A DNA stretch of 64,000 nucleotides from Escherichia coli (GTDB lineage: Bacteria > Pseudomonadota > Gammaproteobacteria > Enterobacterales > Enterobacteriaceae). Every line of letters begins with the position of its first letter. Position 1 is the stretch's first letter. Below are positions 53,701 to 56,700 of this stretch, in pieces. The stretch is from NCBI RefSeq assembly GCF_013315695.1, contig NZ_CP054353.1, one strand, 5' to 3'. Position numbers: made by a program.

Positions 53701-56700
53701 GGGTTGCATCTGGAAAAATTAGAGACACTGAATGTATTCGGTGTACGTGCCGATTACATGGCAACCTTTAAACAATACCTGGAAGATGAAGGGATTACGC
53801 CAAGTGACGAGATCCTTGAGCTGAATTTTGAAACTCGGCCAAATATGCCAGCAACCAGGCTTAAAACACTTAAGCTCAAAGATGGTTATAAAGATAATCA
53901 AAGACTCGGCTTTAAACGTGTCTATTTTCCCGAATTGTATGAAGTTCCTGCTGATTTTCAGGGGAAAATTAAGCAGCCGCATATTAAGCTGGACCTATAC
54001 CCGAAACTTGAGTCGATTGATACCAGCAGAAAAGGGGAAAATACTCCGGTTAACGTGCGTAATGAAGCGAAGTTAGATTATAAAATCATTAGTGCGTTTG
54101 ATTTTGATCGGCTTTATCTCGCCATTCAGAATTATAAACTACAACGCGGCTGGTCAAATTTACGTGTGGATAAACAACGTTTGATCGACTTTTGTACCGG
54201 TAAGACAAAGATCGGAAATAGTTGGTATACCCTTTTGATTCCAGCTTCAGAACTTGAGATTAAGCAATATGCAGATATTGCTAAGCAGGAAGATATTATG
54301 CTTCGTCTGCTGACTGATTATACTGATCGCTTTTACAACACATTGAAAAATGCTTATGAAGGTCAGTTTTATGAAGTCACGCAGGTGAAAGAAGATGATC
54401 CTGGTATGATCAAAATGTACCATTTCGAGATCGAAGAAACTGATGATGGGTTGGCATATGCCAGTCGGCTGGAACAATTACAACAATTGGTCATCGACGG
54501 CGAAATCGGTAAAGCAAAATCCTGGAGTGCATCCGGGATGGTTGCTATTACCTTTGATAAACATCTCTATTATCCACTTCTTTCGATTGAAAAAAATGCC
54601 AACATACCGCTAAAAATGCGACCGGCAGCACTGGGTGCATCAAGTGAGATTACTTTTGTCCATGATCTTCAGTCTTTTGTTGATTCGACAAAAGGGCAGA
54701 AAATTATTGGTGATAAAAGTTTATATCTGCTAAGAAATGCGGATTCTAAAAATAGAGGCCTGGGCTTTGCTACTGCGGGTAATTTTTATCCGGATTTCTT
54801 ATTGTGGTTAGTCGATGATAAAAGTGGTAAACAATGGTTAAGTCTTATTGATCCAAAAGGCATCCGCAATCTTAATCTTGATGATCCAAAGTTCGGATTA
54901 TATAAAGAAATCAAGAATCTTGAACATAAATTATCGGATGATAACTTATCATTAAGTGCATTTATTGTTTCTGAAACTTGTTATGTTGACTTAGTAAACG
55001 TACCTGATTCAAAAGAGAATCTGGAAGCCAGAAATGTGCTTTTTATTGAGGATACTGGTCCATTGTATCTGGAGAAATTATTCAGTAAGATGGTTAGCGA
55101 GTAAATAAATATGATTCTGCTCCATATCTCTGTGAGATATGGAGCAGATATTATCGCCAATGTGCAGGAATAATTAAGTCAAACGATTTTGCTGCATATT
55201 CAAGCATTTTTATTATTTCCCTGTGTCGTTCCTGGTCGAAAGACTGTCCATTTTTTCTACACTCTATAATCCCTTGTAATTCTTTTAGGTTAAACATATC
55301 AAGAAGATATAAATTTTTCCAGGTTGGTTGCCCGAAGAGGTTATAGACTGTTTCCGTAGCATCTCGTTCACTTGCTAATCTTTTCTCTCCTTCTATTCTT
55401 TCAAAAAATATTTCAGCTGTTTCTTTATCATCATAAGTATTTAATAATTTCATTATGATTTCCCTGATTAATGAATTGATATCACGATAATTATATCATG
55501 AATAGATGTAAATTTACTATATATATAAATTAGTGTACAATTCAACATACCAATTTTTTTTAATTTGTAATGTCGATTGGTTAATAATTGGATTCTCTTA
55601 TAATGAATATATATTTACTCTGACTAGAATATTTGTAAAAGTATTTTATATTGAGATTTTAAAATTGATTTGTGGCTATGTACTCATAAATAATACTTTC
55701 GGTGTCAGAAAATACTTTATCTATTACATTTAAAATCCTAGGTGAAAGATATATAATGGCTACCTCACCCCCTAAAAAACTCTTTCCGATGCCACTCTAC
55801 AACCCCTCAAAAGGGTAATTTTTACGCACCTGTGGCAACGCAATAATTTTTCCGTCAAAATCCCAGAATGACCTCTCAATGATCTCTCCGCCGTTTACCG
55901 CATCCAATACCAGTACCCGCATATTTTCATCCAGGCCAATCGTTCCTTTATCAAAGGCTTTATGATGTATCGCGCAAAGCGCCAAGCCATTGGGAATTTC
56001 ACAAGGGCCACCATGTTGTTTCCATTTTATATGTGTCGCTTCCAGTGAGACGGTGGAGTTGCCGTAACAAATATTAAAGCTACATATTGCGCACTGGTAG
56101 TTATAAGCGCGTAATACATGTTTGCGAAATAATGGGTCACGCTGCTTACGGATTTGCTGGAGAGCAAAAAAAGGCTCGTCAGCGATTTACTGGAAGCCAT
56201 TGATATCCCTGGCAGTGAAATAATTGCGATCATGCTCGCAAATTTTCTGCTGTTCAAGCCTGCAAGCGAAGATATATTACCTTGATCTCATATGTTTTTT
56301 TACTTCCTGTGTGCCCTAATTGCCATGCGATGTTGCACCGACGCAAACCGCCGTTTACGCCGGAGGAGTTAAAAGCGCTGATGGATGCGAATAAATCAAA
56401 TTAATGAACGCTCACCTTTCGCGCCAAAACCGCAAAATTGCTTTTACAAACCTGTCAGAAATAATTCCCCGACGGGCTGCCGCGCTGAAATGACTGCTTC
56501 GCAGTGCCGTCGTCCAGTTCTCCGGTGACCGGTACGCTGAACCGTAATATCCCGTGCTTAAATCGTCCGGATCTTCATCAGGCGCGTTCGTCAGTCCTCT
56601 TTCACCTTGTTGCTGGAAGTCGATGAAAATAATATTGGCTAAAACATTATTTTGATAATTGCCATAAATCGCTTCATACGCATGAGGGAAATTTTCTTTC

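Follow-up and report, generated by a model that had tools for sequence, protein, structure and literature searches.

Remnants of two head-to-head restriction-nuclease genes adjoin nanS in Escherichia coli

The closest described counterparts of the genes considered here are ScoMcrA and EcoWI. ScoMcrA of Streptomyces coelicolor has the domain order head-SBD-SRA-HNH, where SBD is the sulfur-binding domain (PDB 5zmm and 5zmo; PMC6224610). EcoWI, a 33.4-kDa SBD-HNH enzyme carrying a KPzzLL...PF..L..W motif, works alone when cloned (PMC7461809). It cuts GpsAAC/GpsTTC at N7/N6, and transformation with dnd-modified plasmid is abolished by its presence (PMC7461809; Lutz et al., Front Microbiol 2020).

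The DNA analyzed here is a 64,000-nucleotide stretch of E. coli contig NZ_CP054353.1 (assembly GCF_013315695.1), referred to as the window. Its positions 55765-56404 are the remnants of two divergently transcribed (head-to-head) restriction-nuclease genes, the diagnosis drawing on directly observed homology, breakpoints, reading frames and population distribution. A first-pass annotation of the sequence had placed degraded gene remnants at 55740-56410, and rightly so, as every ORF within these coordinates is 76 amino acids or shorter and the remnants align to intact genes in strains EA2 and W. The stretch that holds only small ORFs is bounded by the last ORF of the neighbouring operon (100 amino acids, 55151-55453) and by nanS (56412-57392). 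Very probably, the locus is the wreck of a two-gene module directly upstream of nanS that was inactivated by deletions. In their intact state, the two genes of this module are transcribed outward from a shared 136-bp intergenic region.

The pseudogene pair as such is already known, both members having been flagged by RefSeq/PGAP annotation. When positions 55460-56420 were compared by megablast with 5426 complete E. coli genomes, two records were 100% identical. In the one inspected, PGAP marks 55765-56186 on the minus strand as a 'phosphorothioated DNA-binding restriction endonuclease', frameshifted and N-terminally incomplete, and 56300-56404 on the plus strand as an N-terminally incomplete 'HNH endonuclease' pseudogene. 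If anything reported here is mildly new, it is the repeated independent deletion and the derivation of the small protein YthB.

The remnants and their intact counterparts

Strain EA2 shows what the module looks like when whole. It has the same upstream operon as the window, followed by intact divergent genes for proteins of 290 amino acids (gene 1, minus strand) and 216 amino acids (gene 2, plus strand), and then nanS. Gene 1 is intact at the nanS locus of E. coli W as well. The 290-codon gene occupies positions 5307-6179 of the EA2 locus (L004) and 37973-38845 of the W locus (L008). Relative to these genes, the window contains the following features.

55765-56200, minus strand: whole gene 1 pseudogene, from the ancestral stop (55765-55767) to the native ATG (56198-56200), by alignment to EA2 and W
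55797-56188, minus strand: retained C-terminal part of gene 1 (residues about 153-278) with a complete HNH_2 domain, by Pfam and alignment to W
55800-55802, minus strand: 1-nt deletion in a short C/A run, by alignment to strains A3 and EA2
56181-56191, minus strand: junction of deletion 1, with 436 bp lost (EA2 L004, 5732-6167)
56201-56298, no strand assigned: retained divergent intergenic (promoter) region, collinear with EA2 L004, 6180-6289
56299-56310, plus strand: junction of deletion 2, with 583 bp lost (EA2 L004, 6290-6872)
56300-56404, plus strand: C-terminal 34 codons of gene 2 and its stop, by identity to EA2 residues 183-216
56404-56493, plus strand: 29-codon ORF whose ATG overlaps the gene 2 stop (TAATG), a hypothetical protein in PGAP

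The intact gene 1 protein matches the NCBIfam family NF045808 over its full length (1e-131, 437.9 bits, cutoff 180). Within it, residues 5-141 match the ScoMcrA sulfur-binding domain (PDB 5zmo and 5zmm; 7.6e-8), the match falling on ScoMcrA residues 100-232, and the C-terminus is an HNH_2 domain. The intact gene 2 protein, 216 amino acids long, combines a ScoMcrA head-like domain with a PF01844 HNH domain of the McrA type. Its N-terminal residues 24-87 align to residues 29-93 of the ScoMcrA head, and the N-terminus carries PF26345 (ScoMcrA_N) according to precomputed hits on homologues, which are the source of both the PF26340 and PF26345 labels used here. Both E. coli genes resemble ScoMcrA, which also has an HNH domain of the PF01844 type. 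In contrast to ScoMcrA, the domains in E. coli are split over divergent genes, head plus HNH and SBD plus HNH_2, and there is no SRA domain.

The likeness of the intact nanS-locus alleles to EcoWI extends to length and mass (290 amino acids, ~33.3 kDa; 33.31 kDa for the W copy), to the SBD and HNH domains, to the lack of SRA and to the motif KPxxLL...PF..L..W. Size, motif match and the REBASE naming convention together suggest that the E. coli W gene at the nanS locus is EcoWI; an explicit EcoWI accession or sequence was not found in the EcoWI publications, including the supplement. The ancestral genes probably worked like EcoWI. In the gene 1 ancestor, the N-terminal sulfur-binding domain would recognise phosphorothioate-modified DNA and HNH_2 would cut nearby.

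In the window, gene 1 retains its catalytic half. The first-pass annotation had noticed an HNH-type signature, CAIHHKAFDKG, and the signature is real. It lies in a 130-codon stop-to-stop open frame on the minus strand (55797-56189) that reads YNYQCAIC...ATHIKW...PNGLALCAIHHKAFDKG and matches Pfam HNH_2 (E 1.4e-8, 34.9 bits, gathering cutoff 21). Over 127 residues, the fragment shares 83% identity with the E. coli W protein (its residues 150-276; E 2e-80), which excludes a chance match, and in this alignment all the catalytic His, Asn, CxxC and CxxHH residues are kept. That the region holds only short broken frames, as was also claimed, is correct for the ORFs, but the HNH_2 frame itself is uninterrupted.

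Measured against the NF045808 family, the window copy is orthologous by sequence and synteny to a full-length member, being collinear with the EA2 and W genes at the nanS-proximal locus, and the C-terminal HNH_2 with its catalytic His/Asn/His and Cys ligands is present. The sulfur-binding domain (PF26340, DNA-SBD_ScoMcrA) is absent, residues about 8-152 having been deleted. Whereas EcoWI is a complete enzyme, the window copy has neither sulfur-binding domain nor in-frame start, its C-terminus is cut, and it is a pseudogene. It is a derived pseudogene of the NF045808 family and no functional member, and both phosphorothioate-dependent cleavage (GpsAAC/GpsTTC, N7/N6) and dnd+ restriction are predicted to be absent for this allele.

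Of the two remnants, the first-pass annotation had singled out only the one with the HNH-like signature. The second, on the plus strand at 56300-56404, translates to LLPVCPNCHAMLHRRKPPFTPEELKALMDANKSN, the distal half of a second and different HNH motif (CPNCHAMLH), and is identical at 34/34 positions to the C-terminus of the EA2 216-amino-acid HNH endonuclease (residues 183-216). The head-like domain, present in the intact EA2 protein, has gone with the 583-bp deletion. The PF01844 HNH motif is incomplete, with only the distal CPNCHxxxH left and the HVHH at residue 161 deleted.

Between the remnants, 110 bp of the intergenic region survive when counted as 56201-56310, the last 12 nt of which are the deletion 2 junction. 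A 6+6 palindrome, TTGCGATCATGCTCGCAA, lies at 56224-56241 and is identical in intact alleles. Promoter and terminator pattern matches in the region show no excess over the shuffled expectation, and an Rfam search of the region returned no family at E <= 1.

Lesions in the window and in K-12

Aligned to EA2, the window falls into three collinear blocks: 55101-56188 corresponds to 4642-5731, 56181-56310 to 6160-6289, and 56299-56898 to 6861-7460. The overlaps mark two deletions. A single deletion spanning both 5' ends is ruled out, as sequence between the two losses survives, namely the first gene 1 codons and the intergenic region. Deletion 1 takes out the complete sulfur-binding domain (gene 1 residues about 8-152) and is flanked by an imperfect 11-nt repeat, AGTAAATCGCT at codons 4-7 and AAGAAATTGCT at codons 149-152. 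Since 436 is 3n+1, the deletion shifts the frame, and the native ATG no longer reads in phase with the HNH domain. Deletion 2 removes the gene 2 ribosome-binding site, the start codon and residues 1-~185, including the catalytic HVHH, and its flanking microhomology is an imperfect 12 nt, TTTGCTGC(T/C)TGT. Both deletions probably arose by slippage or illegitimate recombination at these microhomologies.

A third lesion, the 1-nt deletion at ~55800, brings in an early stop codon (55797-55799), which costs gene 1 its last 11 residues. It is the youngest of the three, because strain A3 has both large deletions without it. Gene 1 is dead because its 5' 436 bp, an in-frame start and the last 11 codons are all missing.

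The remnants had also been said to match in position a known pseudogene of laboratory E. coli. The K-12 pseudogene at that position, yjhR, is unrelated, with no similarity by blastn or tblastx to either fragment or to the neighbouring operon. The window and K-12 match only over 60 bp of intergenic sequence (56241-56300) and from nanS onward. The true K-12 counterparts are an unannotated fragment of the sulfur-binding domain and ythB. The former is a 247-bp piece of the yjhR-nanS spacer (4536268-4536514) that covers codons about 8-89 of the domain, is 89.5% identical and is disrupted by a nonsense codon as well as a frameshift. A 60-bp deletion took away the beginning of gene 1, and a 631-bp deletion (EA2 6340-6970) fused the start of gene 2 to a small downstream ORF. 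K-12 thus resembles the window in chromosomal position, in the 60 bp of intergenic sequence and in holding pieces of both genes, but it keeps the SBD piece and the gene 2 start that the window has lost, and it is without the parts that the window keeps. All of its breakpoints differ from those of the window, which indicates that each gene has been inactivated independently at least twice.

The K-12 gene ythB (b4802) consists of the ribosome-binding site, ATG and first five codons of gene 2 (MNKLP) followed by the ORF that overlaps the gene 2 stop; its product begins MNKLPAHLSRQNCKIAS... and has been detected by tagging as a small protein in K-12 (bioRxiv 10.1101/511675). In the window, the counterpart of the 3' part of ythB is the 29-codon ORF at 56404-56493, which is antisense to the 3' end of nanS. 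YthB is accordingly a chimera: the gene 2 start region, with its ribosome-binding site and first five codons probably still in use, has been joined to a short ORF downstream.

Distribution of the module and competing readings

The intact 1751-bp module served as the query for counts among the 5426 complete E. coli genomes. Some piece of it occurs in 4932/5426 (91%), and at least 80% of it in 326. The 436-bp segment of the sulfur-binding domain is full length in 1742/5426 genomes (32%) and the 583-bp segment of gene 2 in 1237/5426 (23%), with both kept in 326/5426 (6%). The allele classes include the following, with approximate sizes that were extrapolated from even-step sampling of the match list.

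Both genes intact
W type: gene 1 intact, gene 2 with deletion 2; about 1,000 genomes
E62 type: gene 2 intact, only the first 50 codons of gene 1; about 900 genomes
O157:H7: gene 1 intact, with a nanM fragment and a type II Zorya system in place of the gene 2 side
Window double deletion: about 330 genomes
K-12 type: about 1,700 genomes

At least seven distinct lesions are seen across E. coli, namely deletions 1 and 2 of the window, three deletions in K-12, the 3' truncation of the E62 type and the O157 replacement.

The HNH-like fragment had been taken as possibly the eroded remains of an earlier occupant of this hotspot. As a loose description of eroded remains this stands, but the pair sits on the nanS-side flank, with some piece of it in most complete genomes. 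As to origin, which is a question separate from and compatible with the pseudogene diagnosis, it is conceivable, if rather doubtful, that the pair is leftover cargo of an earlier mobile island. Both genes encode defence-type nucleases and lie where a highly variable island region ends, and their occurrence elsewhere suggests horizontal mobility. In Klebsiella aerogenes, a divergent SBD-HNH_2 / ScoMcrA_N-HNH pair stands beside an Mrr_N-HNH gene and the type I restriction gene hsdR, and in Pantoea, Citrobacter and Shewanella a gene 2 homologue stands alone in unrelated contexts, once near dnd-like genes. Against an island origin, besides the near-ubiquity of module pieces, the module adjoins nanS in every locus inspected, whatever island stands to its left, the neighbouring cargo including a type III-like system, McrBC, AbiE, a primase-helicase island and integrase remnants. 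When genomes with different cargo are compared, homology ends at the gene 1 stop codon, about 55762, which makes the pair the fixed nanS-side edge of the variable region. Moreover, the window was searched for signs of an island end and gave neither a tRNA nor a leuX-derived attachment repeat. The pair's behaviour is that of a long-resident flank under erosion, and not that of cargo displaced by the present island. EcoWI works when cloned alone, and each of the two E. coli genes is often found whole where its neighbour is not, so they are best regarded as type IV-style nucleases that co-localise but are independent of each other.

Selection on gene 1 was compared over 113 shared codons of its alleles. 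Between intact alleles, dN/dS is 0.02-0.05 in four of six comparisons; of the others, it is 0 for the near-identical EA2 and O157 alleles and 0.20 for W versus GmF046, the latter on only seven differences. Against every intact allele, the window lineage gives a dN/dS of about 0.2, with 16-18 replacements, eight of them clustered beside the catalytic His within FNICYGNSTVSLEATH. This fits relaxed constraint. A longer allele that still has sulfur-binding-domain sequence (P0122) shares the C-terminal substitutions of the window, so some of the divergence predates inactivation, and the raised dN/dS is only partly evidence of decay after inactivation and no proof of it. A protein search with the gene 1 fragment, which includes the FNICYGNSTVSLEATH patch, returned only short proteins.

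A pseudogene diagnosis has to be weighed against the proposal that what survives of gene 1, the HNH_2 frame, still yields a nuclease that acts by itself without the SBD, as a non-specific nickase or toxin in the manner of truncated SprMcrA-S; SprMcrA truncated for its sulfur-binding domain is a phosphorothioate-independent nicking enzyme (PMC7461809). The frame of 130 codons, with every catalytic and zinc-binding residue intact and the native promoter region kept, lends this some appeal, and at least one public annotation (P0121) calls a 141-amino-acid 'HNH endonuclease' with a non-canonical start. Yet there is no ATG, GTG or TTG in frame before residue 68 of the fragment, and the native ATG (56198-56200) reads MASSKSL, then 50 out-of-frame residues and a stop, for a total of 57 codons. 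The C-terminus is shortened by the 1-nt deletion, and the replacements relative to intact alleles, with their cluster beside the catalytic His, also speak against a working enzyme. An unregulated non-specific nickase would, in addition, probably be selected against. Taken together, these points make a stand-alone nuclease very improbable. Both fragments of the inactivated module are probably not expressed.

It is hardly credible that the fragments are sequencing or assembly artefacts of truly intact genes for, although a short homopolymer-like run, where errors typically occur, contains the 1-nt deletion at about 55800, this deletion is common to near-identical records (17 records at >=99% identity, with PGAP reporting 'frameshifted' in one identical record), and the main lesions are the 436-bp and 583-bp deletions and no frameshifts. 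The same two junctions are found in about 330 complete genomes (even-step sampling of the match list) from unrelated laboratories and hosts, that is, in hundreds of independent assemblies, which indicates an inherited allele and no sequencing error. Deletion 2 alone is present in ~1,000 more genomes (extrapolated, even-step sampling), including E. coli W, and its junction is shared by GmF046; both of these strains have gene 1 intact.

Consequences of gene loss at the nanS-side locus

On the evidence of the remaining reading frames, it would be impossible for either window fragment to give a functional nuclease, so the strain would be without phosphorothioate-dependent restriction at the nanS-side locus. 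The same expectation, no restriction of phosphorothioate-modified DNA through this locus, applies to about two thirds of the complete E. coli genomes. Such a loss bears on the uptake of plasmids and phages from dnd-positive donors, although the practical consequences are modest.

Repeated, independent deletions at microhomologies could reflect selection against phosphorothioate-dependent restriction as opposed to neutral decay, a possibility to which we give limited credence. Conflict with incoming dnd or ssp modification systems would be one example of such selection.

Understanding of the enzyme family itself is unchanged by these pseudogenes. What the locus offers is a clean natural series of deletion alleles that arose independently in a type IV restriction module bordering a defence hotspot, and an explanation for the origin of the K-12 small protein YthB.

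K-12 counterpart of the remnants and origin of YthB

The remnants of the two divergent nuclease genes have counterparts in K-12 (NC_000913.3), and the features compared between the two genomes are as follows.

K-12 4536268-4536514 (10269-10515 of L003, the extracted K-12 locus): codons ~8-89 of the EcoWI-type sulfur-binding domain, surviving as a fragment with a frameshift
Window 56224-56241: perfect 6+6 palindrome, TTGCGATCATGCTCGCAA, in the intergenic region common to both nuclease genes
Window 56404-56493 (+); K-12 4536597-4536695: ythB-like ORF and YthB

The sulfur-binding-domain fragment lies in the yjhR-nanS spacer of K-12, where the MG1655 record carries no annotation on it, and PGAP annotates the same fragment in other K-12/B-like genomes. 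In intact strains, a YthB-type short ORF overlaps the stop codon of the partner nuclease (TAATG), whereas in K-12 this short ORF is fused behind the RBS, ATG, and first five codons of the partner nuclease gene. The K-12 small protein YthB is a chimera produced by deletion. In contrast to K-12, the window retains the downstream ORF, while the K-12-type initiation region is gone. The intergenic palindrome has the same sequence in intact alleles and is deleted in K-12; it may act as an operator, but is statistically unremarkable.

Flanking genes and a near-identical genome

Window 45705-55104 (+): three-gene operon
Window 55151-55453 (-): 100-aa ORF, on the strand opposite to the operon
Window 56412-57392 (-): nanS, full-length ORF of 326 aa
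Window 60752-61354 (+): fimB, with a nonsense codon

NanS of the window is ~97% identical to K-12 NanS. Despite its full-length ORF, PGAP labels nanS in the identical RefSeq record as a C-terminally incomplete pseudogene, which looks like an annotation artefact, possibly tied to the overlapping ythB-like ORF call. On the other side, PADLOC models predict that the three-gene operon encodes a type III-like system for restriction to which an SNF2 protein has been added, in the order DrmD-like SNF2 helicase, type III Mod-like methyltransferase, and type III Res-like helicase/nuclease. The 100-aa ORF that follows gave no family match. In fimB, residue 162, Q in K-12, is a nonsense codon, and therefore FimB, the type 1 fimbrial switch recombinase, is truncated in the window strain. 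Over the first 20-30 kb of the window (compared over 1-30000), ORF positions are shifted by ~225-231 nt relative to NZ_OZ547117.1, which is otherwise identical, indicating an indel between the two somewhere upstream of the nuclease remnants.

Citrobacter homologue near dnd-associated genes

In Citrobacter (GCA_047312745.1; L014, the locus with a homologue of the partner nuclease, 4001-8651), genes for an IscS-like aminotransferase, DNA_S_mod_dnd_assoc_4, and an SMC-like ATPase, all dnd-associated, lie a few kb from the ScoMcrA_N-HNH homologue. This proximity hints that the ScoMcrA_N-HNH family either is not itself phosphorothioate-targeting or cooperates with phosphorothioate systems.
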